Shown: piece by piece, positions 1,079 to 40,971 of the stretch
Layout: each line of letters opens with the position of its first letter
Numbering within the stretch: position 1 is the stretch's first letter
From: an uncultured bacterium
GTDB taxonomy: Bacteria; Fermentibacterota; Fermentibacteria; Fermentibacterales; JCC-6
DNA: 64,000 nt
Assembly: GCA_965371785.1 (NCBI GenBank)
Contig: CBDUZS010000004.1
Location: 1,963 to 65,962 of the forward strand
Direction: 5' to 3'
Notes under the pieces: generated by a model
What the model saw: only the letters and a program-made list of their open reading frames with translations
The model's database searches: none
What the model was told of the DNA's origin: nothing
Program-made: the position numbers and the translations under genes

Positions 1079-1092
1079 GCCGGGACAGGCAG

Positions 1093-2797: not shown

Positions 2798-3958
2798 ATG
2801 ACCTCTTCCGAACAGTCCGGAGCAGTGCTGCAGGCCAACACAGGAACCTGCAATGCGATACTGGATTTTCTCAGAGAACTTATACGGAACGGACAGGTTG
2901 ATTCAGTGCTGCTCCCTGTGAGAGTACCCTCCGGTGATTCCTTTGCCTGGATTCTCACCGACGACGATTCGGTTCTTGCAGAAGCATCGCCGATTGCTCC
3001 GGTAATGCCGGTGCAGGGGGCGAGAGCCCTCCGGAGCCTGACCAGGAAGGGCGTGGGTAAGCAAAAGATCCTGGCCCTCATGAGACCCTGCGAGATCAGG
3101 GCAGCAATAGAACTCGTCAAACTGGGGCAGGTGCACACGGACAACCTCATACTTGCCAGCTTCGACTGCCCCGGCGCAATGCCCCTGAAGGATTACATGA
3201 ACGAACCGGGGGAAAGTGATCGAAATTTTTCGAAAATTCTGGAGACCGGCGAGCAGGACGGCCAAGTCAGACCAGTCTGTGAAACCTGTATTGAATTCTC
3301 CCGGGTGGGTTCGGACATCCATTTCTGTCACCTGGGGCTTGCTAATGAAAAAGTACTGGCTATACCCGGAAGCACCAGAGGTGAGGAACTGCTTGGCGGC
3401 TCTCTGTCCGACGTGTCTGGTGACGTTTCGCTATGGCAGAAGGAAGTGGACAGGCTCCGGAAGAACCGGTCTGCAGCTCTTGAGATTGCATTCGCTGCGA
3501 CGGGAGACGACATCAGGGGCTTTTCGGGAATGCAATCCGTTTTCGCTGACTGTATCGGCTGCCATAACTGCCAGAGTGCCTGCCCTATCTGCTATTGCAG
3601 GCTCTGCTACTTCGACTCGGAAACGGCTGGTCAGGATCCCGATGCTTTAATGGCTTCAGCCGCCAGGCGGGGAGGAATTTCCCTTCCGGTGGACAGAATC
3701 ATGTTCCATACCGGGAGAATGGCACACATGAGCCTCTCCTGCGTTTCATGCGGACAGTGTACGGATGTCTGTCCTGTTTCCATTCCCGTCGCAAATGTCT
3801 TCAGCTACGTAGCCGATCAAACGCAGCGAGCTTTCGAATACAGAGCAGGAGGAGACGCAGATGCTCCACTGCCTCTCCGGGAATTCAGGAAATCGGAACT
3901 GCAGGGAATTCAGGAGCTCGTCAAAGATGCCGGTCCGGAGGTTTCAACCGATGAGTAG
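2798..3958 (+). CDS. Fe-S flavoprotein subunit of the FlxB/FlxC - HydB/AsrA - FrhB-like family
   Basis: ATG at 2798. Cys clusters CIGCHNCQSACPICYC and CVSCGQCTDVCP. The N-terminal segment resembles the FrhB/FdhB N-domain (ILDFLRELIRNGQVDSVLLPV). It is a paralog of 3951..5039, 9001..9966 and 9972..11003. The family assignment comes from motif recognition only. Confidence 0.6.
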   Translation: MTSSEQSGAVLQANTGTCNAILDFLRELIRNGQVDSVLLPVRVPSGDSFAWILTDDDSVLAEASPIAPVMPVQGARALRSLTRKGVGKQKILALMRPCEIRAAIELVKLGQVHTDNLILASFDCPGAMPLKDYMNEPGESDRNFSKILETGEQDGQVRPVCETCIEFSRVGSDIHFCHLGLANEKVLAIPGSTRGEELLGGSLSDVSGDVSLWQKEVDRLRKNRSAALEIAFAATGDDIRGFSGMQSVFADCIGCHNCQSACPICYCRLCYFDSETAGQDPDALMASAARRGGISLPVDRIMFHTGRMAHMSLSCVSCGQCTDVCPVSIPVANVFSYVADQTQRAFEYRAGGDADAPLPLREFRKSELQGIQELVKDAGPEVSTDE

Positions 3959-5039
3959 CATTATCCTGGATATGGGAGTTTCAGAGGGAGTGACAGAACT
4001 CCTGCGCTACCTTCTCGACAGCGGCAAGGTGGACGGTGTCCTGACGACGAGGAGAATACCAGGTTCCTTTGACCTTGCTCTGATAACCGACTCATCGAAC
4101 CTCTCCGAAGCCGATCCTCTTGCACCGGTCATGACCGTGAACGCCGGACAGCCGCTGTCCTCAATCTCGTTCTCCGGCAAAAAGCTTGCAGCGGTTCTCA
4201 AACCCTGTGAGCTTCGGGCTTTTTGCGAGAGAGTGAAACGGGAGCAGGGCTCATTCGAGAATCTCCTGATAATCTCTTACACTTGCGGTGGTGTCTTCCC
4301 CCTGGAGAAGGTTGCGGCAGGTCAGATCGAAGAGCTGATGCCCGGGTACAGCGAAACCGTTTCGAAGGACGGAATACCTGACGGCACAAGAGACACGTGC
4401 AGGATCTGCGAGCATCCCATCCCGATCAATTCAGACATCACTGTATCAGTGGTAGGTGAAAGGGATCTCGACGGCAAATGCGTGATGTATCTCAATTCCG
4501 GGAAAGCTGAGGTTTACACAAAAGGTTTCAACGGAGAGCGGAACGGGCAGGAGTTCGATCCCGCCATACTGGAAAAGACTCTTGCCGCCAGGAGAAGCGG
4601 TAAGGAAGACCTGTTCGCTTCGATGAGCGAAACCAGCGGCGGACTCGATGGACTGCTGGACCTGTTCGGAAAATGTGTGGGATGTCACGGCTGCAGCAGA
4701 GTGTGCCCGATATGCTACTGTCTTCTCTGCGATTTCGAATCGTCCAATTTCGACTACAGCCTGTCCAACTGTGAAGAATACCTTTCGCGGAAAGGCGCGT
4801 TGCGGCTGCCTCCCGATACGATACTTTTTCATCTGGGCAGGCTGACTCACATGAGCTTCTCCTGCGTGGGGTGCGGCATGTGTTCAGACGTGTGCCCGGT
4901 GGACATTCCGGTTGCGACCGTTTTCAGTAAAACCGGGGAAAAGACGAGTGCGCTATTCGATTATCTGCCCGGAGGAGACATCGAAGAACCAGTCCCTGTC
5001 ATGGTGTTCAGGGAAGAGGAACTGTCAGATCTAGGATAA
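3951..5039 (+). CDS. Fe-S flavoprotein subunit, FlxB/FlxC - HydB/AsrA - FrhB-like family (tandem paralog)
   Basis: The start is ATG 3951 (MSSIILDMG) with GGAGG 9 nt upstream, overlapping the previous stop at 3956-3958. The track start at 3861 lies inside the upstream gene and is rejected. Motifs CVGCHGCSRVCPICYC and CVGCGMCSDVCPVDIP. The N-terminal VTELLRYLLDSGKVDGVL is FrhB-like. Confidence 0.6.
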   Translation: MSSIILDMGVSEGVTELLRYLLDSGKVDGVLTTRRIPGSFDLALITDSSNLSEADPLAPVMTVNAGQPLSSISFSGKKLAAVLKPCELRAFCERVKREQGSFENLLIISYTCGGVFPLEKVAAGQIEELMPGYSETVSKDGIPDGTRDTCRICEHPIPINSDITVSVVGERDLDGKCVMYLNSGKAEVYTKGFNGERNGQEFDPAILEKTLAARRSGKEDLFASMSETSGGLDGLLDLFGKCVGCHGCSRVCPICYCLLCDFESSNFDYSLSNCEEYLSRKGALRLPPDTILFHLGRLTHMSFSCVGCGMCSDVCPVDIPVATVFSKTGEKTSALFDYLPGGDIEEPVPVMVFREEELSDLG

Positions 5040-5073: not shown

Positions 5074-5499
5074 ATGAAGAAGGAATTCAACCCCAGGATA
5101 ACCAGTTTTCTGTGTAAGTGGTGTTCTTACACGGGAGCGGACCTGGCTGGTACCAGCAGACTGCAGTATCCGACATCGATCATCCCCCTGATGGTGATGT
5201 GCTCCAGCAGGGTCGATCCGATTTTTCTCATCAAGGCGTTCCTGAACGGTTCCGATGGTGTCATGCTCGGAGGTTGTCACCCTGGAGACTGTCACTACGA
5301 AACAGGCAACTACCATGCGAGAAGAAGATTTGCGATCGTGAAGAGTGTTTTCGAATCCCTCGGGCTCGAGGCTGACAGGCTGAAGTTATCCTGGATATCC
5401 GCATCGGAGGGGCCGAAATTCGCCCGGGTTGCCAACGAGTTCACCGAAGAGATCATCAGGCTCGGCGAGAATCCGACACGTAAGAACATTTTCCTGTGA
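5074..5499 (+). CDS. mvhD: MvhD/FlxD-type [2Fe-2S] electron-transfer subunit (methyl-viologen-reducing hydrogenase delta subunit family)
   Basis: Hallmark CKWCSYTGADLAG ... CSSRVDP ... GCHPGDCHY motifs. AGGAG RBS before ATG 5074. 141 aa. Confidence 0.85.
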   Translation: MKKEFNPRITSFLCKWCSYTGADLAGTSRLQYPTSIIPLMVMCSSRVDPIFLIKAFLNGSDGVMLGGCHPGDCHYETGNYHARRRFAIVKSVFESLGLEADRLKLSWISASEGPKFARVANEFTEEIIRLGENPTRKNIFL

Positions 5500-5528
5500 A
5501 AGAGGCTGACAGTGCGGCGGAGGAGCTG

Positions 5529-8500
5529 ATGGAAAACTGCAGTAACACGGTTCTCGTGCTTGGCGCCGGCATCGCGGGAATACAGGCTGCTCTGGATCTC
5601 GCGGAGATGGGAGCGGAGGTGCACCTCGTCGAGGATACACCCACTATTGGCGGAAGAATGCCGCAACTCGACAAGACGTTCCCGACAAATGACTGCTCCG
5701 TATGCATACTCGCTCCAAAGATGACCGAGTGCATCAGGCACCCGCTCATCAAGCTGCACGTGCTGTCCAGCCTCGAGGAGATATCGGGTTCGCCGGGGAA
5801 TTTCAGATGCAGGATAATCGAACGGGCAAAGTACGTTGATCCAGTCAAATGCGTATCCTGCGGCCTCTGTGAGGAGAAGTGCCCCGTAAAGCTCGATGAC
5901 GAATTCGATGCCGGACTCCGGAAAACGAAAGCCATCTCACGCTACTTCCTCCAGAGCGTTCCTTCCGAGTACACGATCAACCCCGAACATTGCCTCTACC
6001 TTACAAAGGGAGTCTGCAGACTCTGCGAAAAGGTCTGTCCGGCAGATGCGATAAACTTCGAGGATCAGGACAGGGAGATCGAAATTCTGGCTGGTGCAGT
6101 CATCCTCGCGACAGGTATCGATCCATTCGATCCAATTGGCTTCGGTCACTTCGGATACCACAGGTACAGCAACGTCGTAACCTCTCTCGAATTCGAGCGT
6201 ATGCTCTCCGCATCGGGCCCATTCGGCGGACACGTAGTGAAAGCGTCAGACGGCAAGCCGCCTAAAAGGCTGGCCTTCATCCAGTGTGTCGGTTCGAGGG
6301 ACGAGGGTATCGACAGGAACTACTGTTCGTCCGCCTGCTGCATGTTCGCCATAAAGCAGTCCATAATAGCAAGGGAACACAGCAGGGACCTGGAAGCAAC
6401 GATCTTCTACATGGACATAAGGGCTTTCGGCAAGGATTTCGACAGGTATTACGACAAGGCCGAGAAGCAGTACGGCGTAAGCTTCAAGAGATCCAGAGTA
6501 GCCGATATCATTGAGCTTCCGGACGGCAGCCTGAAACTGAAGTACACATTCGAGAACGGCGACATACAGTACGAAGTCTTCGACATGGTCGTTCTCTCGA
6601 TCGGTCTCGAACCCCGCAGTATCAACAGGAAACTGTCGAAGATCCTGGATGTGAAGCTGAACCGATTCGGGTTCTGCAGATCGAACACCTTCAGCCCTCT
6701 CAGCACCACCAGGGAGGGTGTGTTCGTATGCGGTGCAATGAACGGACCGAAAGATATCCCCGAGTCTGTGATATCCGCGTCAGGCGCTGTCGCGAATGCC
6801 GCCAGGTTCCTCGGGCTCGAAAGGCAGACCATTTCGACCGATGAAAAGACAATCGAAAAGGATGTTGCCGGGGAGAGACCCAGGGTCGGTGTGTTCGTGT
6901 GCCACTGCGGCATAAACATCGCTGGTGTCGTGGACGTGAAGGACGTAGCCGGTTACGCTGCCGGTCTCTACAATGTCGAACACTCCGAAGATGTAGTCTA
7001 CGCATGCTCTACCGATTGCCTGGAGACGATAAAGCAGCGTATCGAAGAGCATGATCTGAACAGGATTGTCGTCGCAGCCTGCACACCCAGGACCCACGAA
7101 CCTCTGTTCAGGGATACGATCAGTGAAGCCGGGCTGAACCCCTACCTGTTCGAGATGTCCAACATCCGTGACCAGTGCTCATGGGCGCACATGGACGAAC
7201 CAGAACTGGCAACGACAAAATCCAGGGATCTCGTGGAGATGGCTGTTGCCAAAGCGCGTGGTCTTGTTCCTTTGCAGAGACTTCCAATAGAGATCGATCC
7301 CGAAGCTCTTGTCATCGGCGGCGGGCTCTCCGGAATGACGGCGGCACTGGCCGTAGCGGATGCCGGGTACGAAGTCTTCCTGGTCGAGCGGGAAAACGTG
7401 CTCGGTGGCAATATGAGGGACATCTTCTTCAGTTTCGACGGGTCAGACCCCCAGCAGATTCTTACCGAAACCATCGAGAAAGTGCTTTCTCATGATAGGA
7501 TCAATGTATTTCTAGACAGCGAGATAACGGACATCTCCGGATACGTCGGGAACTTTCTCACCTCCCTCGTGAAGGGAGACGGATCGAGTGAAGAATTCAC
7601 CCATGGGGCAGTCATCGTAGCCACAGGCGGTGTACGCCACGAGACGGAGGATTACCTCTACGGTGAATCGAGTCGTGTGATCACTCAAATGGAATTCGAG
7701 CGGATGCTCCATGACAAGGCCTTTCCCGAAGGCCGGCTGCGGAATGTTGTAATGGTACAGTGCGTAGGTTCCAGAGAAGAAGGACGGATGTACTGCAGCC
7801 GTATCTGCTGTTCAAAGGCGGTAAAGAACGCCCTGGAACTGAAAAAGCGCAGGCGTAACACGAATATTTACTTCGCCTGCAGGGACATCAGAACCTATGG
7901 ATTCAGCGAGGAGTTCTATACGAGACTGCGGAACGAGGGAACACTGTTCTTCCGTTACACGCCCGAACGCAAGCCGCTCGTGAAGATGATCCAGCCGGAT
8001 GATCCGGACAGCAGGCTGAGGGTAACAGTCTTCGACTCCGTGCTGGAGGAGGAAGTCGTCATTGACGCCGACCTGCTGGTCCTGGCGACGGCTATCGACG
8101 CCCCGGAGGGGAACAGAAAGCTTGGTCAGATGCTCAAGGTACCGCTAAATTCCGACGGGCTGTTCCTGGAAGCACACGTGAAACTGCGCCCCGTTGACTT
8201 TGCCACCGAGGGTATTTTCGTCTGCGGGCTTGCCCACGGCCCCAAGGATATGAGTGAATCAATCGCCCAGTCCCTTGCGGCAGCCGCCAGGGCACTGACC
8301 TTCCTGTCGAAGAGGTCCATACTCGCCGAGGGTACCATTGCCCAGGTAAGGACTGACAGATGCTCCGGGTGCGGTTACTGCGAATCAGCATGCGCTTACT
8401 CAGCCATTGAAATCGATCCTGAAGAAAGCGTAGCCGTTATAAACGATGCACTTTGCAAGGGGTGTGGTGCGTGCGTCGCTTCATGCAGGTGTGGTGCTCT

Positions 8501-8588
8501 CGATCTTCGCGGATTCACCAACGATCAGCTCTTCTCGGTGTTCGATTCGCTTTCCATGGAGACTGTTGAGGGGAAAACAGCCGAATGA
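5529..8588 (+). CDS. hdrA: Fused 1.5x HdrA-like flavoprotein (FAD domain with DCSVC motif, inserted ferredoxin, then a second unit: 4-Cys N-domain, second FAD motif, C-terminal ferredoxin)
   Basis: The start is probably ATG 5529 (MENCSNT), with GGAGGAG 5 nt upstream. The track's GTG 5496 overlaps the mvhD stop and remains an alternative. Motifs in order: [19 protein letters not shown]; LDKTFPTNDCSVCILAPKM; CVSCGLCEEKCPV; FIQCVGSRDEG..CCMFAIKQ; RVGVFVCHCGINIAG; LVIGGGLSGMTAALAV; VQCVGSREEGRMYCSRICC; CSGCGYCESACAYSA..CKGCGACVASC. Confidence 0.85.
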   Translation: MENCSNTVLVLGAGIAGIQAALDLAEMGAEVHLVEDTPTIGGRMPQLDKTFPTNDCSVCILAPKMTECIRHPLIKLHVLSSLEEISGSPGNFRCRIIERAKYVDPVKCVSCGLCEEKCPVKLDDEFDAGLRKTKAISRYFLQSVPSEYTINPEHCLYLTKGVCRLCEKVCPADAINFEDQDREIEILAGAVILATGIDPFDPIGFGHFGYHRYSNVVTSLEFERMLSASGPFGGHVVKASDGKPPKRLAFIQCVGSRDEGIDRNYCSSACCMFAIKQSIIAREHSRDLEATIFYMDIRAFGKDFDRYYDKAEKQYGVSFKRSRVADIIELPDGSLKLKYTFENGDIQYEVFDMVVLSIGLEPRSINRKLSKILDVKLNRFGFCRSNTFSPLSTTREGVFVCGAMNGPKDIPESVISASGAVANAARFLGLERQTISTDEKTIEKDVAGERPRVGVFVCHCGINIAGVVDVKDVAGYAAGLYNVEHSEDVVYACSTDCLETIKQRIEEHDLNRIVVAACTPRTHEPLFRDTISEAGLNPYLFEMSNIRDQCSWAHMDEPELATTKSRDLVEMAVAKARGLVPLQRLPIEIDPEALVIGGGLSGMTAALAVADAGYEVFLVERENVLGGNMRDIFFSFDGSDPQQILTETIEKVLSHDRINVFLDSEITDISGYVGNFLTSLVKGDGSSEEFTHGAVIVATGGVRHETEDYLYGESSRVITQMEFERMLHDKAFPEGRLRNVVMVQCVGSREEGRMYCSRICCSKAVKNALELKKRRRNTNIYFACRDIRTYGFSEEFYTRLRNEGTLFFRYTPERKPLVKMIQPDDPDSRLRVTVFDSVLEEEVVIDADLLVLATAIDAPEGNRKLGQMLKVPLNSDGLFLEAHVKLRPVDFATEGIFVCGLAHGPKDMSESIAQSLAAAARALTFLSKRSILAEGTIAQVRTDRCSGCGYCESACAYSAIEIDPEESVAVINDALCKGCGACVASCRCGALDLRGFTNDQLFSVFDSLSMETVEGKTAE

Positions 8589-9004
8589 AAGAATGGCAGC
8601 CCAGAATACTCGCCATCCTGTGCAACTGGTGCTCGTATGCCGGCGCGGATCTTGCAGGTGTTTCGAGGATACAGTACCCCCCGAATATCCGGGTGGTGCG
8701 CGTTCCCTGTTCCGGGCGTGTAGACCCTCTTTTCGTGATGAAAAGCCTTTCTGCAGGATTCGACGGGGTGCTGATCTCCGGTTGCCATCCGGGTGATTGT
8801 CACTACATATCGGGCAACTACGTAGCGAGAAGGAAATTCGCCGTCCTGAACACAATCCTCGAATTCGTAGGGGTAGAGCCGGACCGGGTTCAGTTCTCCT
8901 GGATCTCTGCAGGAGAGGGTGAGCGATTCGCAGAAGTGGTGAGAAAGATAACCGAAGATGTCAGGGAACTGGGACCCTCGACCAGGCTGGTGAAGAAGGC
9001 ATGA
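8585..9004 (+). CDS. mvhD: MvhD/FlxD-type subunit
   Basis: CNWCSYAGADLAG, CSGRVDP and GCHPGDCHY motifs. The ATG overlaps the hdrA stop (ATGA). Confidence 0.85.
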   Translation: MKEWQPRILAILCNWCSYAGADLAGVSRIQYPPNIRVVRVPCSGRVDPLFVMKSLSAGFDGVLISGCHPGDCHYISGNYVARRKFAVLNTILEFVGVEPDRVQFSWISAGEGERFAEVVRKITEDVRELGPSTRLVKKA

Positions 9005-9966
9005 GTACTATGGAAGATCTTCGCAAAACCGTACGGGAGCTGCTCGCGGAGAATCGGATCGACCTTTTCATCGGATGGAAAAGCGGATCCCGCCCTCTGT
9101 CGGCAACACCTGTTTTCATCGACAACCCGGACGAGGCGGACGATCTCATTTTCGATATCACCTGCGGGAACAACCTGTCCGTTTTCTTCACGAAGGATAG
9201 AAAGCAGTTTACCGGGAAACGGATCGGAATCGCGGTAAAGGGCTGTGATGCAAGGTCACTTGTCCTGCATATCCTCGAGAAGCAGGTCGACCGCGAGAAC
9301 GTTGTAATAGTAGGAGTTCCATGCAATGGTGTGCTGGATCGAAAAAAAGTGCTCCGGAAGACTGACGGCAGGGAGATACTGGAACTGGAGGATTCAGGTT
9401 CGCAGATCGGTGTTACGGGCAACGGATTCGAACTCTCAATCAACCGCGAGGAGATACTGAGTTCGGCCTGTCTTACCTGTGTTCATCCCGACGCGAGGGA
9501 ATTCGATTTTTTCATGGGCGAGCCCAGGAAAGAAATTTCTGTAGAAGACAGGCTGAAAGAGGTGAGAGAATTCGAATCCCTGCCGGCTTCCCGGAGATGG
9601 GACCGGATGAAGCAGGAGTACGAGAAGTGCATACGCTGCTATGCCTGCAGGAATGTGTGCCCCTCATGCTACTGCAATGTGTGCTTCGTCGACCAGAACG
9701 ACCCGCGCTGGATAGGCAGCACCTGCGACTTCTCGGACACCATGATTTTTCATCTGATAAGAAACCTGCATGTGGCCGGGCGATGCGTTGAATGCGGCGC
9801 CTGCGAGAGAGCCTGTCCGATGGATATCAACCTCCTCCTTCTCAACAGGAAGGTAGCAGCCGAAGTGGAAACAAGATTCGGCGACGTAGCCGGTCTCGAT
9901 ATCGGCGGGAAACCGGCAATGGCTGACTACCGGGAAGACGAGAAGCAGGATTTCATAATGGGATAG
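9001..9966 (+). CDS. Fe-S subunit, FlxB/FlxC - HydB/AsrA-like family
   Basis: CIRCYACRNVCPSCYCNVC and CVECGACERACP clusters. The ATG overlaps the mvhD stop. It is a paralog of 2798..3958 and 9972..11003. Confidence 0.6.
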   Translation: MSTMEDLRKTVRELLAENRIDLFIGWKSGSRPLSATPVFIDNPDEADDLIFDITCGNNLSVFFTKDRKQFTGKRIGIAVKGCDARSLVLHILEKQVDRENVVIVGVPCNGVLDRKKVLRKTDGREILELEDSGSQIGVTGNGFELSINREEILSSACLTCVHPDAREFDFFMGEPRKEISVEDRLKEVREFESLPASRRWDRMKQEYEKCIRCYACRNVCPSCYCNVCFVDQNDPRWIGSTCDFSDTMIFHLIRNLHVAGRCVECGACERACPMDINLLLLNRKVAAEVETRFGDVAGLDIGGKPAMADYREDEKQDFIMG

Positions 9967-9971
9967 GGAGA

Positions 9972-11003
9972 ATGACAAGGCTGGACAAGAGTGATTTCGG
10001 GGATTTCATCCGTGAACTGGCAGAAGGCTACGACGTCTACGCTCCCGGCCTTCGTGGGAGTACAACGATCTTCGTTCCCGTTGGACCGGATGATGATATC
10101 GTCCAGGACTGTACGGTAACGGTCATGTCCCCGAAGAACGTGTTCTTTCCACAGGCCGAAGTGCTTTTCGAGTACGAGAATGGCGAGGTCAGAACGATAC
10201 CGGCCAGTACCAGACCGCTGGCAGTCTGGGGAATGAGAGGCTGCGATGTCCGCAGTCTTCACCTCCTGGACAAAGTCATGGGAGACGCAATACAGATGCC
10301 CGGGGACAAGAGATTCCAGGATCCCTACTGGAAGGAGAGGTTCGACGATTCCATCATCTTCTGTACCGCATGCAACGAGCCTCTTTCGACCTGCTTCTGC
10401 AACTGGTTCGGCGGCGGACCGCACAGCGGGACCGGAGCGGACGTCTTCGTGATCGACATCGGTGAAGCCTGGCTGATGGAACCTATGAGCGAGAAGGGTA
10501 CGGAACTCATCGCAGGGATTTCCTGCTTGAAAGACGTATCGGATGACGACCTGACAAGGGCTTCGGAGCTGGCTGCCAGGGCGGAATCTCTGATGACCGC
10601 TCCGGATGGTATCGAAGGCATCGACACGCACCTGACAGAATTGTTCGATGCCGAAGTGTGGGATAAGATCAGCGCCAAGTGTGTGACCTGCGGTGCATGC
10701 ACATTCTGCTGTCCCACCTGCCACTGCTTCGATCTCCAGGATGAGGGCAGCGGCGGCAGAGGCAAGAGGATCCGCATCTGGGACTCATGCATGTTCCCCA
10801 TATTCACGGCAGAAGCTTCTGGGCACAATCCCAGGGCTCTTTCGAAGGAACGTGTAAGGCAGAGGATCATGCACAAATTCAGTTACTACCCGGAAAGGTA
10901 CGGAGAGATGCTCTGCACTGGCTGCGGACGATGCATCTCCGCCTGTCCCGTCAACTTCGATGTAAGGGATGTGCTGAGAGAACTCCAGGAATGCGAGAGT
11001 TGA
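9972..11003 (+). CDS. Fe-S subunit, HydB/AsrA (sulfhydrogenase beta / anaerobic sulfite reductase A)-like, FlxB/FlxC-type
   Basis: CVTCGACTFCCPTCHCF and CTGCGRCISACPVNFDV motifs are typical of the HydB/AsrA family. AGGGAG RBS before ATG 9972. Confidence 0.65.
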   Translation: MTRLDKSDFGDFIRELAEGYDVYAPGLRGSTTIFVPVGPDDDIVQDCTVTVMSPKNVFFPQAEVLFEYENGEVRTIPASTRPLAVWGMRGCDVRSLHLLDKVMGDAIQMPGDKRFQDPYWKERFDDSIIFCTACNEPLSTCFCNWFGGGPHSGTGADVFVIDIGEAWLMEPMSEKGTELIAGISCLKDVSDDDLTRASELAARAESLMTAPDGIEGIDTHLTELFDAEVWDKISAKCVTCGACTFCCPTCHCFDLQDEGSGGRGKRIRIWDSCMFPIFTAEASGHNPRALSKERVRQRIMHKFSYYPERYGEMLCTGCGRCISACPVNFDVRDVLRELQECES

Positions 11004-11845
11004 GGATAGTCGTGTCGAATACCTACATTCCGCTGCAGATGAGAGTCGAGAAAATCGTCTCGGAAGATTCTGACAGGATGCTTCGCACCTATGACCTGAC
11101 CTTCCTGGACGAAGCGGAACGTAAGGCGTTCAACTACCTGCCCGGGCAGTTCTGCGAACTGTCAATACTCGGCAAGGGTGAATCACCTTTCGGGATAGCG
11201 TCCTCCCCTACTGAAGACGGCTATCTCCGTTTCACAGTGAGCAGGACCGGTACCGTAACCAACGAGATACATTACCTCAGAGTGGGTGATACCGTCGGGA
11301 TGAGAGGACCTCTCGGCAACTGGTATCCTGTGGAGGAGCTCAAGGGCGCTAACGTGTTGATAGTTGGTGGCGGGTTTGCTTTTACAACCCTGAGGTCACT
11401 TCTGGTGTACCTGCTGGAAAACAGGAGTGATTACGGAGACATAACCGTTGTTTACGGAGCGAGAACACCCGATCTCCTCATTTACAAGGACGAACTAGCC
11501 CTCTGGAAAGAGAGAGATGACCTCGAGCTGCATCTCACTATTGACAGACCGGTGGAAGGCTGGGACGGCAAGACCGGATTCGTACCGACGGTTACCGAAG
11601 AGATCGCACCCGACCGGGAAAATACGTTCGCCATCGTATGCGGACCTCCGATTATGATCAAGTTCACACTGCCGGTGCTCACAGCACTTGGATTCCCCGA
11701 CGACAGGATCTACACTTCCCTCGAACGGCGCATGAAGTGCGGCATAGGCAAGTGCGGGAGGTGTAACATCGGGTCGAAATACATCTGCATCGACGGGCCC
11801 GTGTTCTCGATGGCCGAGCTCAGGATGATACCCGAGCCTGTCTAG
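10991..11845 (+). CDS. FAD/NAD(P)H-binding oxidoreductase with C-terminal [2Fe-2S], FlxA / HydG / AsrB-like
   Basis: The start is ATG 10991 (MRELRIV), overlapping the previous stop. The track's upstream Met at 10787 is out of context. FNR-like fold motifs: YLPGQFCEL, VLIVGGGFAFTTL, CGPPIMI. The C-terminal CGIGKCGRCNIG is a 2Fe-2S motif. Confidence 0.7.
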   Translation: MRELRIVVSNTYIPLQMRVEKIVSEDSDRMLRTYDLTFLDEAERKAFNYLPGQFCELSILGKGESPFGIASSPTEDGYLRFTVSRTGTVTNEIHYLRVGDTVGMRGPLGNWYPVEELKGANVLIVGGGFAFTTLRSLLVYLLENRSDYGDITVVYGARTPDLLIYKDELALWKERDDLELHLTIDRPVEGWDGKTGFVPTVTEEIAPDRENTFAIVCGPPIMIKFTLPVLTALGFPDDRIYTSLERRMKCGIGKCGRCNIGSKYICIDGPVFSMAELRMIPEPV

Positions 11846-12331
11846 ATGGAGACTATAGAGATGAAGAAGATAATCCTCGCCGAGAAAGACCCGAACTTCA
11901 AGAATCAAATTGCATCACAGCCAGGTGCGGAGTCCTTCATGAAGTGCTTCACCTGCGGCACCTGCACGGCTACCTGCCCCGTGGCAGAGGTGCATGATGA
12001 GTACGATCCGAGAAAGATAATAAGGATGGCCATACTGGGTATGCGTGAGGAGGTCCTCTCCTCCGACATTCTCTGGATGTGTTCGAGATGCTACGCTTGC
12101 GCTGCCCTCTGCCCTCAGAACGTGAAGTTCACCGATGTCATCAGCATTCTCAGAGATATGGCTGTGAAAGAGGGATACGTTCCAGCAGAACGGCTCGAGA
12201 AGGCCAGGGAACTCGACAGAATCGTGCAGAGCCTTCGATGCAGGCTCATAGAACAGAAACTGCATCCTGACGACGAGAACAGAGCTGAAATCAAACGCGT
12301 GCTCGAGGGTGAACTGGAGGAATCATGGTAG
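11846..12331 (+). CDS. HdrC-like 2x[4Fe-4S] ferredoxin-type subunit
   Basis: Two CxxCxxCxxxCP motifs (CFTCGTCTATCP and CSRCYACAALCP). 161 aa. Immediately upstream of the giant HdrA. Confidence 0.6.
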   Translation: METIEMKKIILAEKDPNFKNQIASQPGAESFMKCFTCGTCTATCPVAEVHDEYDPRKIIRMAILGMREEVLSSDILWMCSRCYACAALCPQNVKFTDVISILRDMAVKEGYVPAERLEKARELDRIVQSLRCRLIEQKLHPDDENRAEIKRVLEGELEESW

Positions 12332-12377: not shown

Positions 12378-15300
12378 ATGTCCAACGGAGCGCCAGAGCC
12401 GAAGAAAGAATTGGTTACGACAGCCACACGTAGATCGGGAGCAGTGCTCGTGGTCGGCGGCGGCATAGCTGGAATCCAGTCATCTCTTGATCTGGCCGAC
12501 TCCGGATTCAAGGTTTACCTGGTCGAGGATTCACCCGCAATCGGCGGAATCATGGCCCAGCTGGACAAGACGTTCCCTACGAATGACTGCGCCATGTGTG
12601 TCATCTCTCCCAAGCTGGTTGAATGCGGGAGACATCTCAATATAGAACTGCTGACTGACTCGAATCTGGTCTCCCTTGAAGGTGAACCCGGCAACTTCAC
12701 GGCAAGAGTGTACAAACGTCCCCGCTTTGTCGATCTGGAAACCTGCACCGGCTGTGGTGAATGCGTAGAAGTGTGCCCCGTAAGCGTCTTGTCGTTGTTC
12801 GACGAGAACCTTGTCGATAGAAAGGCAATCTATAAGCCCTATGCCCAGGCCTCCCCGAACGCATTTGTCATCGACAAGGCAGAGACACCCCCCTGTCAAC
12901 TCGCCTGCCCGTCAGGGATTCACGTACAGGGCTACGTTGCTCTCGTGGCTGAAGGCAAGTACGAAGAGGCATACGACCTGATCAGGAAGAACAACCCGTT
13001 CGTCTCGGTCTGCGGAAGGGTCTGTCATCATCCGTGCGAAACGGAATGCCGTCGTGGAGAGTACGATGAGCCTGTCGATATCAGATCCATCAAGCGGTTC
13101 ATCGCCGATTACGTCCATGCACATCACGAGGAGTTCGAAAAGAACACTGACGAAACCGTTCCCGATAAGAGCGAGAAAGTTGCCGTGATAGGTGCGGGAC
13201 CCGCCGGGCTCACCTGCGCATTCTACCTGGCCAGGGAAGGTTATCAGGTCACCATATTCGAGAAGGATGACAAGGCAGGGGGAATGCTGCGATTGGGAAT
13301 CCCCTCCTACAGGCTCCCTGAGGAAGAACTCGACTGGGAGATAGAACAGATTTTGAGAGAGGGAATCGAGCTTCGTACGAATTCACCCATAGGCCCGGAG
13401 GATTTTGCCGGACTGCGGGAGCACTACGATGCTTTGTTCGTATCGGTCGGATTCTCCTACGGAAGAAAGCTGGACATCGATGGAGCAGATAACTCCGGAG
13501 TCCAGACCGGGATAGAATTCCTGAGAAAGGTGAACGGAAACGTCGAGCCCGACCTCGGTAAAAAAATGGTTGTCATAGGCGGCGGAAACGTAGCGATAGA
13601 TGTAGCGAAATCAGCAATCCGCCTTGGCTCGGAGGTGGAGCTTTACTGCCTGGAATCCCGAAGGGAAATGCCTGCCCACGGCTGGGAGATCACTGAGGCA
13701 ATCGAGGAAGGGATCCGGATCAATCCGTCATGGGGACCCGCGGAGATAATCGGTGAGAACGGCAGAGTGAAGGGTATCCGCTTGCGGAAATGCACTTCCG
13801 TTTTCGATTCGGAGGGAAATTTCAATCCGCAGTTCGATAATGAGGATGTTATAGAAACCGATTGCGACGATGTGATCATCGCCATCGGGCAGAGCTCTGA
13901 CATTACCTTCCTGAAGGAAACGGACTCCGGGCTGAAGCAGACGGTACCGGTGGATCCCCTGACATTTTCAACTTCCATCGATGGAGTGTTCGCAGCCGGA
14001 GACATCATTCGCGGCCCGGCTTCGGTCGTCGAGGCGGTAGGACAGGCTCACGAGGCGGCCCTGTCGATCGATCGATACCTCAGAGGCGAGGATATGTCCG
14101 ATGGAAGAACCGTGGAGGATGAGCTTCCAGCCAGGGAACCCCCTATGGATGTCCCGCTCAGGCAGCGTGTTCAGATGGGTTTCATTCCTCCAGCCGAGCG
14201 TGTGAAGGATTTCTGTGAAGTCGAACTCGGTTTCTCCGAAGAGGAGGTTCGCGAAGAAGCCGGACGCTGTCTCGAGTGCGGTCTCTGCTCACGCTGTCTG
14301 CAGTGCGAGGTCGTCTGTGAAGCAAATGCGATCAACCACGCCATGACCGGGGAAATGGTCGATATCCGGGTCGGAGCGGTCATTCTAACATCTGGAGCCG
14401 AGGCATTCGATCCTTCCCCGCTGCACGAGTTCGGCTACGGACGTTACGATAACGTATTAACCAGTATTCAGTTCGAGAGAATATTAGCCGCATCAGGTCC
14501 CTTCGAGGGGCATCTGCAGAGACCTTCCGACGACAAGGTTCCGACAAGGATAGCATGGCTTCAATGTGTCGGGTCGAGAACCGAGGACACTCACATGCCG
14601 TACTGCTCCTCCGTCTGCTGCATGTACGCGATCAAAGAGGCGATAATCGCAAAGGAGCATGTGAGCTCTGTTGAGCCGACCATGTTCTTCATGGACATGC
14701 GTGCACACGGCAAGGATTTCGACAGCTACTACGAACGGGCTGTCGAGATGGGTGTGAGGTTTGTCAGGTCAAGGGTCAGCAAGATAAGAGAAATCAACGA
14801 TTCCGGTAACCTCGAGCTGCGTTACGTGACAGAGGACGGCACCGTACGGTTCGAGGAGTTCGATCTCGTGGTTCTGTCCGTCGGTCTCGATCACAACAGG
14901 CTCAACGCAGAGATATCGGATAACCTCGGACTCCGTCTGAACGAGTACAGCTTCATCGACTCCTCACAGCATTCACCCATACTGACTTCGCGGCCGGGGG
15001 TCTTCGTTTCCGGACCTGCAGGTTCCCCGATGGATATCCCGGAGACCGTCACCCAGGCTTCGGGATCGGTAGCCGGTGCAGCGGAGATCCTTTCGGATAC
15101 CCGGGGCACGGAGATCATCGAGAAGGAGTATCCCGAAGAGATCGACGTAAGCGGGAAAAGACCAAGGATTGGTGTTTTCATCTGCCGTTGCGGAACCAAT
15201 ATCGCAAGCATTGTCGACGTACCCTCGGTAGTCGAATTCGCGCGAACCCTTCCGGATGTTGTTTACGCCGGTGAGAACCTGTTCACCTGCTCTCAGGACA

Positions 15301-16859
15301 CACAGAAGAAGATAAAGGAGATAATCGACGAGAATCGTCTGAACAGGATAGTCGTCTCTTCCTGCTCCCCCAGCACTCACGAACCGCTCTTTCAGGAAAC
15401 CATCAGGGAAGCAGGGCTTAACCGCTACCTGTTCAACATGGCCAACATCAGGAACCACTGCAGCTGGGTCCACCGGAACGATCCGGTGCAGGCGACGGAA
15501 AAGGCGAAGATCCTGACCCGAATCGCTGTGGGCAAGTCACGGCTGCTGAATCCCCTTCATACAGTCGTCCTCGATGTGGTGCAGAAGGGGCTGGTCGTCG
15601 GCGGGGGGCTTGCCGGTATGACTGCAGCACTCTCCGTCGCCGAACAGGGCTACGATGTGGCTCTGGTCGAGAGAGAAAGTGTGTTCGGCGGCAACCTGTT
15701 GCGGCTTACGAAGAAACCTGACGGTCTCGACGTACTCGAGTATCTGAATGACCTGATCAGCCGACTGGAATCCCATCCCCGCGTCCACATCTACCTGAAT
15801 TCCACTATCGATGCCGTTGATGGATACATCGGAAACTACCTTACATCGATCCGCAACAACGAAACTGAAGAGATCGAGGATTACAAGCACGGTATAATCA
15901 TCATCACCACGGGAGGAGTGGAAACCAGCCCGGACTCATATCTGTACGGGAATTCTGATGGAGCAGTTCTCACACAGCTGGAACTCGAGAAGGATCTCGA
16001 GCACGACTGCGACTCGTACGCCAGAATGAAGAGTGTTGTGATGATTCAGTGTGTGGGGTCGAGGGAAGAGGAACACCCATACTGTTCCAGAGTCTGCTGC
16101 ACACAGTCCGTCAAGAACGCTATCCGGCTCAAGGAGCTCAATCCTGATCTGAACGTCTACATCCTCTACAGAGATATGAGGACCTACGGATTCAACGAGC
16201 GATACTACCAGCAGGCCAGGGCAATGGGTGTCGTGTTCATGAGATTTGATAAGGACGAAAAGCCCATAGTCGAATTCGACGGAACCGGAGAAGACAGAAA
16301 GATCAGAGTCAGTGTGGTCGACCATGTTCTCGGTGCAACCATCGAGATAGCTCCCGACCGCGTGATCCTCGCACCCGCCATCGAGCCGAGGGAAGATGCT
16401 TCGCGACTGTCGCAGATGCTCAAGATACCGCTCAACGAAAACCGGTTCTTCATGGAAGCTCACGTTAAACTCAGACCCGTGGATTTTTCGGCGGAGGGGA
16501 TATACCTTGCCGGTCTGGCTCATTCTCCCAAGGGTATGGACGAGACGATCTCACAGGCCAAGGCTGCCGCGGAGAGAGCCTGCATCATTATCAGTTCGGA
16601 CGAGTACCTGGCAGTAGCCAACATTGCCAGTGTGGATCAGGACGTTTGCGTCGGCTGCGGGTTATGCGTTTCGGTCTGCCCATACAACGCTCTCGGGCTT
16701 GTCTGGCAAAGCGGGAAAAACGTCTGTTCGGTGAATACCGCTCTCTGCAAGGGTTGCGGCAGCTGTTCATCGGTATGCCCGTCCGGAGCCATGGAGCAGC
16801 TCGGATACACCGAAGAGCAGACACTGGAGATGGTCGAGCTTACCCAGATCATTTTCTGA
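12378..16859 (+). CDS. Giant HdrA-GltD-HdrA fusion flavoprotein (1493 aa): HdrA FAD/ferredoxin unit, inserted NADPH-dependent glutamate-synthase-beta/NfnB-like module, then a second HdrA-like unit with C-terminal ferredoxin
   Basis: HdrA-type motifs: [19 protein letters not shown]; LDKTFPTNDCAMCVISPKL; CTGCGECVEVCPV. GltD-type motifs: CGRVCHHPCETEC; VAVIGAGPAGLTCAFYLAREGY; VVIGGGNVAIDVA. Second HdrA unit: WLQCVGSRTED..CCMYAIKE; RIGVFICRCGTNIAS; LVVGGGLAGMTAAL; IQCVGSREEEHPYCSRVCC; CVGCGLCVSVCPY..CKGCGSCSSVCP. Confidence 0.8.
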   Translation: MSNGAPEPKKELVTTATRRSGAVLVVGGGIAGIQSSLDLADSGFKVYLVEDSPAIGGIMAQLDKTFPTNDCAMCVISPKLVECGRHLNIELLTDSNLVSLEGEPGNFTARVYKRPRFVDLETCTGCGECVEVCPVSVLSLFDENLVDRKAIYKPYAQASPNAFVIDKAETPPCQLACPSGIHVQGYVALVAEGKYEEAYDLIRKNNPFVSVCGRVCHHPCETECRRGEYDEPVDIRSIKRFIADYVHAHHEEFEKNTDETVPDKSEKVAVIGAGPAGLTCAFYLAREGYQVTIFEKDDKAGGMLRLGIPSYRLPEEELDWEIEQILREGIELRTNSPIGPEDFAGLREHYDALFVSVGFSYGRKLDIDGADNSGVQTGIEFLRKVNGNVEPDLGKKMVVIGGGNVAIDVAKSAIRLGSEVELYCLESRREMPAHGWEITEAIEEGIRINPSWGPAEIIGENGRVKGIRLRKCTSVFDSEGNFNPQFDNEDVIETDCDDVIIAIGQSSDITFLKETDSGLKQTVPVDPLTFSTSIDGVFAAGDIIRGPASVVEAVGQAHEAALSIDRYLRGEDMSDGRTVEDELPAREPPMDVPLRQRVQMGFIPPAERVKDFCEVELGFSEEEVREEAGRCLECGLCSRCLQCEVVCEANAINHAMTGEMVDIRVGAVILTSGAEAFDPSPLHEFGYGRYDNVLTSIQFERILAASGPFEGHLQRPSDDKVPTRIAWLQCVGSRTEDTHMPYCSSVCCMYAIKEAIIAKEHVSSVEPTMFFMDMRAHGKDFDSYYERAVEMGVRFVRSRVSKIREINDSGNLELRYVTEDGTVRFEEFDLVVLSVGLDHNRLNAEISDNLGLRLNEYSFIDSSQHSPILTSRPGVFVSGPAGSPMDIPETVTQASGSVAGAAEILSDTRGTEIIEKEYPEEIDVSGKRPRIGVFICRCGTNIASIVDVPSVVEFARTLPDVVYAGENLFTCSQDTQKKIKEIIDENRLNRIVVSSCSPSTHEPLFQETIREAGLNRYLFNMANIRNHCSWVHRNDPVQATEKAKILTRIAVGKSRLLNPLHTVVLDVVQKGLVVGGGLAGMTAALSVAEQGYDVALVERESVFGGNLLRLTKKPDGLDVLEYLNDLISRLESHPRVHIYLNSTIDAVDGYIGNYLTSIRNNETEEIEDYKHGIIIITTGGVETSPDSYLYGNSDGAVLTQLELEKDLEHDCDSYARMKSVVMIQCVGSREEEHPYCSRVCCTQSVKNAIRLKELNPDLNVYILYRDMRTYGFNERYYQQARAMGVVFMRFDKDEKPIVEFDGTGEDRKIRVSVVDHVLGATIEIAPDRVILAPAIEPREDASRLSQMLKIPLNENRFFMEAHVKLRPVDFSAEGIYLAGLAHSPKGMDETISQAKAAAERACIIISSDEYLAVANIASVDQDVCVGCGLCVSVCPYNALGLVWQSGKNVCSVNTALCKGCGSCSSVCPSGAMEQLGYTEEQTLEMVELTQIIF

Positions 16860-16941: not shown

Positions 16942-17637
16942 ATGAGCAGTCAACAAGAGTTTGCCTTGCCGAAGTGCGCTTACTGCAAGGAGGAAAGGAA
17001 GGTCTGTACAAATCCTGCTGGAACCGGTCCCGTCTGGTGCCCGACTCTTACTCTGGAGGTTCTGGTCAGCAAAGCTTTCGAGGAGTACGATGACCGCGGC
17101 ACCATGGAGCTCGCTAGAGCTGCCACCGTACAGGAAGGTGAATGCTACATCGGCAGGTCGAGGGGTGCCGAAGCCGCTCCCTACCCCGTAAAGCCCAGGG
17201 CTCTGGAGATAATCGAACTCGCCGGGAAAATGGGCTACAGCAGAATAGGCATTGCCTTCTGCACGGGGCTGATGGAGGAGGCAAGGCTCTTCAGTGAAAT
17301 TCTCATATCAGCTGGTCTGGAGGCTGTTTCCGTCTGCTGCAAGGTGGGAAGAACTCCGAAGGAGAGAATAGGTGTTCTCGACGATCAGAAGATCCGTATC
17401 GGGGAGTTCGAGGCGATGTGCAGCCCGGTTGCCCAGGCTCGCATTCTCGATCGGAGCGGGACGGACCTCAACGTAGTCATCGGGCTTTGCGTCGGCCATG
17501 ATTCGCTGTTCTTCAAATACAGCTCAGTCCCGGTAACGGTGCTCGTAGCGAAGGACAGGGTTACGGGCCACAATCCCGCAGCGGTTCTGTACACCGCTCA
17601 CAGCTACTACAGGAACCTGTTGAAGGGACCTTTCTGA
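16942..17637 (+). CDS. Cys-rich metal-binding protein, DUF1847-like
   Basis: 231 aa. CAYCKEERKVC..WCP and LCVGHD motifs. AGGAG RBS before ATG 16942. The DUF assignment is from memory of the family signature. Confidence 0.45.
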   Translation: MSSQQEFALPKCAYCKEERKVCTNPAGTGPVWCPTLTLEVLVSKAFEEYDDRGTMELARAATVQEGECYIGRSRGAEAAPYPVKPRALEIIELAGKMGYSRIGIAFCTGLMEEARLFSEILISAGLEAVSVCCKVGRTPKERIGVLDDQKIRIGEFEAMCSPVAQARILDRSGTDLNVVIGLCVGHDSLFFKYSSVPVTVLVAKDRVTGHNPAAVLYTAHSYYRNLLKGPF

Positions 17638-21458: not shown

Positions 21459-21459
21459 T

Positions 21460-27136: not shown

Positions 27137-27146
27137 GGCCAGCTCC

Positions 27147-28925: not shown

Positions 28926-29248
28926 GGAAGATCTCCCGACCTCTCCTCTGCCCTTTTGTACTCCCTGAGAAGTTTTCTGAGAATTGCGGGAGTCAATCTG
29001 CCATGGGTGTCATCGTTGACCATTATGACGGGGGCGAGAGAACAGCAGCCTATGCAGGCAACCGTGAACAGCGTGAAGAGGCCATCCTCAGTGGTTCCAC
29101 CGACTTCGATACCCAGTTCATCCTCTATGGTCTCGATTATCATCTTTGAATCTGAAACGTGGCATGCTGTTCCGGCGCACGCTCTGATCAGGTTCTTGCC
29201 CATGGGCTGGAGTCTGAACTGGCTGTAGAAAGTAATGACGCCGTACAC
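28922..29248 (-). CDS. NuoE/HoxE-like thioredoxin-fold [2Fe-2S] subunit; N-terminus unresolved (no canonical start upstream)
   Basis: VYGVITFYSQF ... CAGTACHV ... CIGCCSLAPV. Homology continues ~80 codons upstream (ELIPLLQSAQDHFGYVP) to a stop at 29458-29460. No ATG/GTG/TTG lies in that stretch. Confidence 0.65.
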   Translation of the reverse strand: MYGVITFYSQFRLQPMGKNLIRACAGTACHVSDSKMIIETIEDELGIEVGGTTEDGLFTLFTVACIGCCSLAPVIMVNDDTHGRLTPAILRKLLREYKRAEERSGDLP

Positions 29249-32939: not shown

Positions 32940-33015
32940 ATCTGGGGCACCTCCCACAATGATGAATCACCGATCTTTCTCCGGTCGAGTGCGGGCTGGA
33001 AACAGAAAAAGACCG

Positions 33016-39618: not shown

Positions 39619-40971
<1,353 letters not shown>

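Follow-up and report, generated by a model that had tools for sequence, protein, structure and literature searches.

A conserved HdrB-free Flx module within an Hdr/HdrL supercluster of an uncultured Fermentibacterota bacterium

Complexes of the Hdr/Flx type are central to the energy conservation of anaerobes, and to our knowledge their biochemical study has so far been confined to the forms that contain HdrB. The Desulfovibrio cluster is written hdrCBA-flxDCBA in papers citing Ramos et al. 2015 (PMC12125255, PMC6103483). Loci without HdrB have also been published, namely the Flx-like locus Dred_0137-48 of Desulfotomaculum reducens, which lacks HdrB/C and whose proteins have been called orthologues of Flx from D. 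vulgaris (PMC4759654), and eight of the nine hdrA/hdrL-mvhD loci of Desulfobacterium autotrophicum, which lack hdrBC (PMC2702500). The present analysis concerns a module of this kind on contig CBDUZS010000004.1 of an uncultured Fermentibacterota bacterium, in a stretch of 64,000 nt referred to here as the window. An earlier note, made from the letters alone, had described positions 8585-12331 as an Flx-like module in inverted order and without HdrB.

The five tightly packed genes of the + strand were located where the earlier note had placed them, and domain scans bore out its identification of an MvhD/FlxD, a HydG/AsrB-like flavoprotein and an HdrC-like protein. The giant HdrA that it saw directly after the hdrC-like gene is a 1493-aa HdrA fusion. 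The 1030-aa double HdrA in front of the module, the canonical hdrA partner of flxDCBA, had been overlooked in the first reading. The module and the two HdrA genes that border it are as follows.

5496..8588, + strand: double HdrA preceding flxD, 1030 aa; NCBIfam HdrA2, 1002 bits
8585..9004, + strand: flxD/mvhD, 139 aa; [2Fe-2S] connector to HdrA; PF02662, E 1e-54
9001..9966, + strand: flxC, 321 aa; FdhB/FrhB-family Fe-S protein; PDB 7bkb_E, 1e-29
9972..11003, + strand: flxB, 343 aa; HydB/ShyB/AsrA-like Fe-S protein; PF17179, E 3e-33
11012..11845, + strand: flxA, 277 aa; HydG/AsrB/PyrK-like protein with FAD, NAD(P)H and [2Fe-2S] sites
11846..12331, + strand: HdrC-like protein, 161 aa; two [4Fe-4S] motifs and a clade-specific tail; TIGR03290, 2e-27
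12378..16859, + strand: hdrL, 1493 aa; double HdrA; Pfam Fer4_20 and Pyr_redox_2

The gaps around the Flx module (-4, -4, 5, 8, 0 and 46 nt) indicate translational coupling, the first being a 4-nt overlap (ATGA) of the HdrA stop with the flxD start. The true start of flxA is GTG 11012 (or TTG 11000), the listed start of its open reading frame (ORF) at 10787 being too early. FlxD shares 58-86% identity with the MvhD proteins of related Flx loci. FlxB matches NCBIfam models at 3e-49 (ShyB) to 1e-41 and the sulfhydrogenase beta chain 9nez_B at 3e-43. FlxA, the presumed pyridine-nucleotide entry site of the module, carries the Pfam domains NAD_binding_1, FAD_binding_6 and DHODB_Fe-S_bind and matches PDB 9nez_C at 2e-54. 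The 1493-aa protein is an HdrL, combining HdrA domains with a GltD/NfnB-type domain in an operon that holds three mvhD genes; in the domain map the insert in its first copy is an NfnB/GltD-like NADPH-FAD domain (residues ~170-646), and its PDB matches are HdrA 5odc_A (1e-182), 9bov_A (5e-102) and NfnI 5jca_L (6e-75).

For comparison, 79 loci were collected from species-representative genomes by alignment of FlxC homologues, supplemented with several metagenome contigs and annotated with reference proteins from the window; the genome scan comprised the 80 closest FlxC relatives, Desulfovibrionales not being among them. The order MvhD-FlxC-FlxB-FlxA was found in all 82 loci that have a FlxC homologue, and an HdrA-type gene lies directly upstream of mvhD in about 66 of the 71 loci where this position was readable. 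A Bacillota locus (L080) reads hdrC-hdrB-hdrA-mvhD-hdrA-mvhD-flxC-flxB-flxA. The pair formed by FlxC and FlxB, one FdhB-type and the other HydB-type, is present in all related loci, including those of Desulforamulus/Desulfotomaculum. All four Flx proteins of the window align over their full length, at 38-70% identity, with those of the Desulforamulus/Desulfotomaculum loci and of HdrB-carrying loci, FlxA being 58-59% identical to FlxA of the former. The name hdrCBA-flxDCBA is taken here as the transcription order hdrA, flxD, flxC, flxB, flxA. Because the 82 loci agree, the name of the Desulfovibrio cluster, as the citing papers write it, conforms, and the proteins are homologous to those of D. 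reducens-type Flx loci, the gene order in the window can be regarded as the usual Flx order; the inversion proposed earlier has to be abandoned.

The missing HdrB stood up to closer inspection. No PF02754 (CCG) domain was found by Pfam in any gene of positions 1-19 kb, which covers the 0-17.6 kb block reported earlier to be free of CCG proteins, and a CCG motif regular expression run on the ORFs of positions 1-22000 gave no match in that block. A hidden Markov model (HMM) of HdrB, applied to every ORF of at least 50 aa in the whole window, recovered nothing but the HdrD-like gene at 60801-61955, in agreement with the earlier note. This HMM was built from related loci and missed divergent HdrC-CCG fusions (e.g. 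in L057), so the motif expression was added and examples were checked with Pfam. An HdrB gene just outside the window was likewise not encountered: in the near-identical contigs L002 and L003 the operon starts about 0.8 kb upstream of position 1 with a further mvhD, preceded by a divergent methyltransferase gene.

The same state prevails among the relatives. The 48 loci whose FlxC is at least 46% identical to the window protein span at least eight phylum-level groups (Fermentibacterota/Aegiribacteria, Krumholzibacteriota, Eisenbacteria, Cloacimonadota, Delongbacteria, Marinimicrobia, WOR-3 and Stahlbacteria), and in 47 of them no CCG protein occurs within about 10 kb. The only one, in L050, belongs to a separate divergent hdrC-hdrB-hdrA/mvhD unit. 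Among the 34 more distant loci, 12 have a CCG protein (Dehalococcoidia, Anaerolineae, Bacillota, Bathyarchaeia, Aerophobetes, Fibrobacterota and Desulfotomaculum), often directly after flxA-hdrC or fused to HdrC. Judged from gene content, the absence of HdrB is thus a conserved trait that characterises an entire clade of loci and is not an oddity of the window; the statement that Flx systems always carry HdrB is contradicted by the published HdrB-less Flx and HdrL loci (PMC4759654, PMC2702500). With HdrB missing, the gene set does not specify a terminal acceptor, which supports the suggestion of the earlier note that it may be other than a heterodisulfide.

The conserved cluster begins with mvhD, hdrA'+hdrA'', two FdhB-like genes, mvhD and a double hdrA, and continues with mvhD (flxD), flxC, flxB, flxA, the hdrC-like gene, in most lineages an FrhB-like gene, and then hdrL or nuoE-nuoF-(2Fe-2S)-hdrA. 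Protein identities to three FCB-group loci (L006, L008 and L009) are 54-86%, those of FlxB being about 48-60%. No description of this 13-gene HdrB-free Hdr/HdrL supercluster as such, with its spread in the FCB group, was found in the literature searched. The part upstream of the double HdrA comprises the following genes.

1..1078, + strand: 3' part of hdrA' (complete protein, 450 aa), which supplies the first half of a pseudo-dimeric double HdrA split over two genes; Pfam Pyr_redox_2
1066..2778, + strand: hdrA'', 570 aa; supplies the other half of that HdrA; Pfam FAD/Fer4 domains
2798..3958, + strand: FdhB/FrhB-like Fe-S protein, 386 aa; PDB FdhB chains 9t1s_M (4e-28), 8rvu_E and 7bkb_E
3927..5039, + strand: FdhB/FrhB-like Fe-S protein, FlxC paralogue, 370 aa, ATG at 3927; PDB 9t1s_M, 2e-36
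5074..5499, + strand: mvhD, second of three, 141 aa; PF02662, E 2e-49

It can be asked whether the module is an aberrant, inverted Flx system that has lost its HdrB, as a local oddity or in the course of decay. HdrB is indeed absent, but the universal gene order refutes this explanation by synteny; moreover, every gene is intact and coupled in translation to its neighbours, the arrangement has been kept in several phyla, and the HdrC-like protein is among the best conserved of the module proteins (69-79% identity in L006, L008 and L009). The probability left to it is close to nil.

The HdrC-like protein itself has a cluster-binding core and a tail unlike that of HdrCs encoded next to HdrB. Its match to the PDB HdrC chain 8rvu_c (1.6e-23) covers residues 15-114 only, and its last ~50 residues bear the motif LRC..I..KLHP....W, with a mean identity of 46% within the clade and of 13% to HdrCs adjoining HdrB. 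In canonical enzymes the tail of HdrC contacts HdrB. In a neighbour-joining tree the 44 HdrC-like proteins without an adjacent CCG protein (those from the 48 loci together with copies from Latescibacterota and Desulfobacterota and one from Bacillota) form a clade in 39 of 60 bootstrap replicates, and the canonical HdrB-adjacent proteins do so in 55 of 60; both types coexist in L050 and L069. The gene follows flxA in all 34 informative loci of the 48 according to their gene strings, 32 of these lying within 400 nt in an automatic count. An NfnB-like (HdrL) or NuoF-like module occurs within 6 kb downstream of 29 of the 34 informative HdrC-like genes as against one of 12 other hdrC genes, and in L069 and L074 the HdrC-like gene is found directly upstream of hdrL, apart from flxA. 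Given the separate clade and tail, the HdrL/NuoF co-occurrence and the placement in L069 and L074, the protein is read as a partner of HdrL and not as a remnant of HdrBC. With moderate confidence it may be assigned to a distinct, HdrB-independent HdrC clade.

These features also bear on the possibility that the complex is still a disulfide reductase, served in trans by an HdrB/HdrD-type CCG protein encoded elsewhere, e.g. at 60801-61955, which would dock to it and reduce a DsrC-like or low-molecular-weight disulfide. Such a CCG protein does exist in the window (PF02754, E 5e-28), L050 has its separate hdrC-hdrB-hdrA/mvhD unit beside an HdrB-free cluster, and the cooperation of an HdrB-less Flx locus with a second hdr locus was proposed for D. 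reducens (PMC4759654). The HdrD-like protein of the window, however, possesses a fused HdrC-like domain of its own and adjacent HdrA and MvhD in a cluster linked to pyruvate:ferredoxin oxidoreductase (POR), the tail of the HdrC-like protein has been replaced by a different one that is conserved across phyla, and 47 of the 48 loci are without a CCG protein within about 10 kb. Published descriptions of Fermentibacterota genomes report no sulfate reduction (PMC5030696). Docking in trans is therefore distinctly improbable.

The POR-linked cluster (54443-64000, + strand) consists of a three-gene pyruvate:ferredoxin oxidoreductase followed by HdrA, MvhD, the HdrD-like CCG protein and a second HdrA, and resembles the 'HdrAL/POR' locus of Syntrophobacter fumaroxidans. 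Both of its hdrA genes have an in-frame TGA (57371-57373 and 62594-62596) at the Cys of the motif C-x-x-[C/U]-I-x-G-P-K, so that both proteins are probably selenoproteins that extend beyond the ORFs listed for them; in the HdrAs of the Flx operon this position is a Cys. An in-frame TGA was also observed, at G-[C/U]-HPGDCHY, in 50 mvhD genes of relatives (L009, L029-L044, L053, L067, L081, L084-L086, L088 and others), where Cys is present in all three MvhDs of the window. Selenocysteine is thus probable in MvhD of the relatives and not in the window operon.

Of the two genes that the earlier note called HydB/AsrA-like, the second (flxB) is so by its PF17179 match, and the first (flxC) proved to be of the FdhB/FrhB type by PDB match and by fold. 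The AlphaFold (AF2) model of FlxC (pLDDT 87.4, pTM 0.86) was closest in Foldseek to 7bkb_E (TM 0.74) and 8rvu_E (TM 0.72), followed by FrhB, Fsr and HCAR; 7bkb_E is the FdhB subunit of a methanogen Fdh-Hdr complex, and such FdhB chains are the best solved relatives of FlxC. Only cluster motifs are common to FlxC and FlxB, whereas FlxC and the 370-aa protein at 3927-5039 align over their full length with 24% identity (E 3e-24). In total 2038 FlxC homologues were found. The nearest named homologues are those of Aegiribacteria (74%) and Sabulitectum (70%), by which the host would most likely belong to Fermentibacterota or to a near relative in the FCB group. By these alignments and the predicted fold, FlxC is a full-length FdhB/FrhB-family protein and not of the HydB/AsrA type. 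In the solved Fdh-Hdr complexes an FdhB-type subunit is found together with MvhD and HdrA.

The assignment raises the question whether an FdhB/FrhB-family subunit, of which there are three here and four in most relatives, binds a flavin and a hydride carrier or small substrate and is thereby the third bifurcation partner. Among FrhB-family proteins there are subunits whose reaction partners are F420, siroheme domains or chlorophyll intermediates. FlxC and the 386-aa and 370-aa proteins match FdhB over most of their length, and in most relatives the HdrC-like gene is immediately followed by one for a fourth protein, in which the FrhB_N and FrhB_C domains are strong. Yet the FdhB of the solved Fdh-Hdr complexes serves mainly as an electron connector, the lineage of the window does without the fourth FrhB-like gene and shows no other changes, and no cofactor-biosynthesis genes lie nearby, which makes a substrate-binding role very improbable.

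The reading we favour, with a probability of roughly 0.5, is that the FlxDCBA module in its usual order and the HdrB-free HdrC paralogue are part of a soluble complex that connects NAD(P)H with ferredoxin by electron bifurcation or confurcation, without disulfide chemistry. FlxA, with its FAD and [2Fe-2S] cluster, would oxidise NAD(P)H, and the electrons would pass via the Fe-S clusters of the HydB-like FlxB and the FdhB-like FlxC to the [2Fe-2S] cluster of FlxD/MvhD and from there to the flavin of the double HdrA encoded at 5496-8588, as from FdhB and MvhD in the solved methanogen complexes. HdrA would then split or merge electron pairs with ferredoxin. The 2x[4Fe-4S] HdrC-like protein presumably carries the branch that in HdrABC ends at the CCG clusters of HdrB, and its target, the third partner, would be a second pyridine-nucleotide flavoprotein, i.e. 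the NfnB-like domain of HdrL or, in relatives, the NuoEF-type module. If the branch leads to such a flavoprotein, the complex itself would do no disulfide chemistry.

Several points weigh against this reading. NADPH-type (HdrL) and NADH-type (NuoEF) modules swap between lineages, which is awkward for a simple transhydrogenase, and a further transhydrogenase would be redundant since the window already has NfnAB-like and Stn-like genes; a plain NADH/NADPH transhydrogenase role was downgraded on both grounds. Bifurcation from NAD(P)H to ferredoxin needs an acceptor of higher potential than NAD(P)+, and the sulfur-carrier genes inside many related operons point to another partner. The HdrC-like clade has no more than moderate support, the loci lack phylogenetic independence, and the tie to the Desulfovibrio Flx proteins is indirect, running through the Desulforamulus/Desulfotomaculum loci (38-59% identity). 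The NfnAB-looking pair (30619-32957, - strand) consists of a 488-aa GltD/NfnB-like and a 292-aa PyrK/NfnA-like protein. The Stn-like genes (23462-29461, - strand) encode NuoE-like and NuoF-like proteins beside a 1244-aa protein with 2Fe-2S, NfnB-like, NuoG-like and molybdopterin domains, which over nearly its whole length matches PDB 9bov_A (2e-229) and 8oh5_C (1e-206), the latter presumably from an Stn-type bifurcating transhydrogenase.

The sulfur-carrier genes suggest the main alternative, namely that the complex exchanges electrons with protein-bound sulfur (a TusA/DsrE persulfide or thiosulfate-derived sulfane) as high-potential acceptor or donor. Genes for TusA, DsrE, a YeeE-type transporter or a rhodanese were found in 18 of the 48 HdrB-free loci and in none of the 34 distant ones (p 2e-5 in a Fisher test without phylogenetic correction); the count covers about 10 kb on either side, and the genes lie mostly inside the cluster or at its ends. 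In Cloacimonadota a TusA-YeeE-rhodanese set directly follows the HdrC-like gene, where other phyla have hdrB, and DsrE is found between hdrA and mvhD. TusA is the sole recurrent flanking family, its active-site CPxP cysteine is conserved and Pfam agrees with the assignments. HydBG and SudA/NfnB homologues reduce S0/polysulfide in vitro. A cluster of Hdr, TST, TusA and transporter genes had been noticed in Antarctic Cloacimonadota metagenome-assembled genomes (MAGs) by Williams et al. 2021, who read the association as sHdr-like sulfur oxidation (PMC8542988). The parts that define sHdr are missing, however: HdrB1/B2 are absent, and no LbpA is found among the annotated genes. Sites associated with TusA are listed below.

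L009, 8265-10273
L006, 20703-20936
L018, 3-350
L049, 5551-5817

Two types of TusA could be distinguished. Type 1 (CPMP) is accompanied by a YeeE-like transporter and by a lipoprotein rhodanese in which Ser takes the place of the catalytic Cys, and type 2 (CPQP), with extra conserved cysteines, marks the ends of clusters in Fermentibacterota, Cloacimonadota, Delongbacteria and Stahlbacteria.

Against a sulfur partner stands the fact that sites known to reduce or oxidise persulfide are missing, no CCG being present among the ORFs of the loci, and that the catalytic Cys of the L009 rhodanese is replaced by Ser. The reading of the Pfam-annotated gene lists of L003 and L006-L009, without a dedicated search, revealed no lipoate-binding or siroheme protein. 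About half of the loci are without sulfur-carrier genes, though many of these are truncated. No TusA, DsrE, rhodanese or YeeE gene is present in the 64-kb window or in its 96%-identical relatives, and the lead is therefore weaker for this organism. Electron exchange with carrier-bound sulfur is accordingly considered unlikely. In this alternative the reactive site would be other than a CCG cluster, such as a flavin/cysteine site in a thioredoxin-reductase-like HdrA or in the NfnB-like or HydB-like domain. The wider proposal, that the HdrB-free supercluster encodes a previously undescribed multi-site bifurcating megacomplex of FCB-group and allied bacteria for CCG-free handling of carrier-bound sulfur (TusA/DsrE persulfide or sulfur from imported thiosulfate), is rather doubtful; if true, ferredoxin and NAD(P)H would be coupled to the reduction or oxidation of sulfur in the cytoplasm by a catalytic route that is new.

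From position 1 to 17.6 kb the window consists of a single run of + strand genes that overlap or are separated by very short gaps. Within it, promoter- and terminator-like sites are not in excess and are fewer than in shuffled controls, a result compatible with one operon and otherwise uninformative. The hdrA' and hdrA'' genes overlap by 13 nt, and the complete hdrA' gene is carried by L002/L003. Mapped against a single HdrA, hdrA' aligns to residues 265-570, and hdrA'', with an N-terminal domain, an FAD domain and a C-terminal ferredoxin domain, to residues 7-276 and 337-669. In the 1030-aa HdrA, copy 1 aligns to residues 169-570, without the N-terminal region and the C-terminal ferredoxin domain, and copy 2 to 16-243 and 335-668, without the inserted ferredoxin domain. 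HdrA'+HdrA'', the 1030-aa HdrA and HdrL have this asymmetric two-copy design in common, and the operon therefore encodes three pseudo-dimeric HdrAs. Altogether about 13 genes make up this operon; its products are three MvhDs, the three double HdrAs (HdrL being one of them), FdhB-like adaptors, FlxCBA and the HdrC-like protein.

One further gene closes the run:

16942..17637, + strand: DUF1847 Cys-rich protein, 231 aa; PF08901, E 7e-53; between hdrL and a DUF1576 membrane protein

This gene is shared with contig L001 and missing at the same place in the 96%-identical L003/L005; it is lineage-specific and probably lies outside the conserved system. A role in place of HdrB was considered for it and rejected, because its hhalign probability to HdrB is 0.4% and it is absent from those relatives. 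The operon is directly followed, on the other strand, by a sigma-54-dependent response regulator and a PAS histidine kinase (20112-23439, - strand); at least the response regulator keeps its position in the 96% relatives, whose contigs end before the kinase. The pair is a possible regulator of the operon. An ArsR-type regulator upstream in Sabulitectum was set aside as not recurrent among relatives.

Further variants of the module were observed among the relatives. HdrA-MvhD-FlxC-FlxB-FlxA modules with 43-46% identity in FlxC occur in Bathyarchaeia and in a Helarchaeota (Asgard) MAG (among L054-L066, L072 and L082), and the Flx module is therefore not confined to bacteria. In L084 (Desulfotomaculum sp.) HdrA-MvhD-FlxC-FlxB-FlxA is duplicated in tandem, with an HdrC-CCG fusion gene between the copies; this agrees with Dred_0141 and Dred_0148 of D. 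reducens, published as identical FlxA copies. Elsewhere in the window (33091-43862), three large PPDK_N (PEP-utilising, ATP-binding) proteins are clustered on both strands, two of them with an N-terminal response-regulator-like domain.

Digesters and sediments harbour Fermentibacterota, Cloacimonadota, Marinimicrobia, Krumholzibacteriota, WOR-3 and others as abundant fermenters and syntrophs. In these groups the HdrB-less operon is strongly conserved and not a one-off, has its own HdrC lineage and in many lineages has sulfur-carrier genes alongside, and it offers a testable target for the role of an HdrA bifurcation module without a disulfide-reducing subunit. It also corrects likely mis-annotations such as 'sulfhydrogenase', 'HdrABC' and 'sHdr-like sulfur oxidation'. 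A 'sulfhydrogenase' was inferred in Fermentibacterota by Kirkegaard et al. 2016, who never mention Hdr (PMC5030696); HydB/HydG-like genes such as flxB/flxA, without hydrogenase subunits, may be behind such calls. Since HdrB-less Flx/HdrL loci have already been published and the supercluster arrangement is new to the literature searched, the operon is considered as only partly new.

Among the closest known systems is FlxABCD-HdrABC of Desulfovibrio (Nitratidesulfovibrio) vulgaris, known here through papers citing Ramos et al. 2015 (PMC12125255, PMC4759654). As far as these describe it, it shares with the window the order hdrA-flxD-flxC-flxB-flxA, an NAD(P)H flavoprotein FlxA, two Fe-S subunits, an MvhD-like FlxD, an HdrC-type protein and the presumed flavin-based bifurcation at HdrA. 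Measured against the same accounts, the window differs in lacking HdrB, in an HdrC of another clade and with another tail, in its fused double HdrA, and in an operon extended by two further HdrA/MvhD units and HdrL. The host is moreover a fermentative FCB-group bacterium and not a sulfate reducer, which makes DsrC an unlikely acceptor. The hdrL/hdrA-mvhD loci of D. autotrophicum HRM2 and the Dred_0137-48 locus resemble it in their HdrL, made of HdrA and a glutamate-synthase-type NAD(P)H domain, in mvhD being always adjacent, in the lack of hdrBC from most of them and in the presence of FdhB-like genes (PMC2702500, PMC4759654). They are smaller, however, and belong to sulfate reducers with HdrBC/DsrC elsewhere, and TusA/DsrE accompany the cluster in relatives of the window, unlike in these loci.

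With the methanogen Fdh-MvhD-HdrABC and Elp-Hdr complexes (PDB 7bkb, 8rvu and 9t1s) the window operon has in common an FdhB-type subunit, MvhD docking on HdrA and the 2x[4Fe-4S] core of HdrC. It differs from them in having no catalytic subunit of formate dehydrogenase or hydrogenase and no HdrB, and in its NAD(P)H input via HydB/HydG-like subunits. In QmoABC of sulfate reducers, HdrA-like flavoproteins, an MvhD-like domain and an HdrC-like di-cluster domain likewise work without HdrB, and the HdrC-like protein matches the NCBIfam model qmoC at 1e-21. QmoC, however, has a membrane haem-b domain and serves AprAB, whereas the 161-aa protein has only the di-cluster part, neither a membrane nor a haem domain being matched in Pfam, and the window genes scanned include no apr genes. 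The sHdr systems with TusA, DsrE and LbpA (PMC11094781) are similar in that Hdr-type genes lie near TusA, DsrE and rhodanese genes in relatives, not in the window, and differ in that the window operon has no HdrB1/B2 and includes Flx, MvhD and HdrL. Finally, NfnAB, the Stn-type transhydrogenases and the beta/gamma subunits of the Pyrococcus sulfhydrogenase (PDB 5jca, 8oh5/9bov and 9nez) provide the counterparts of the NfnB-like HdrL insert, the NfnA/PyrK/HydG-like FlxA and the HydB-like FlxB, and they too tie pyridine nucleotides to Fe-S chains and ferredoxin. Neither the genes of the operon nor the other large genes scanned in the window showed [NiFe] hydrogenase domains; unlike in those enzymes, the corresponding domains of the window are grafted onto HdrA/MvhD machinery.

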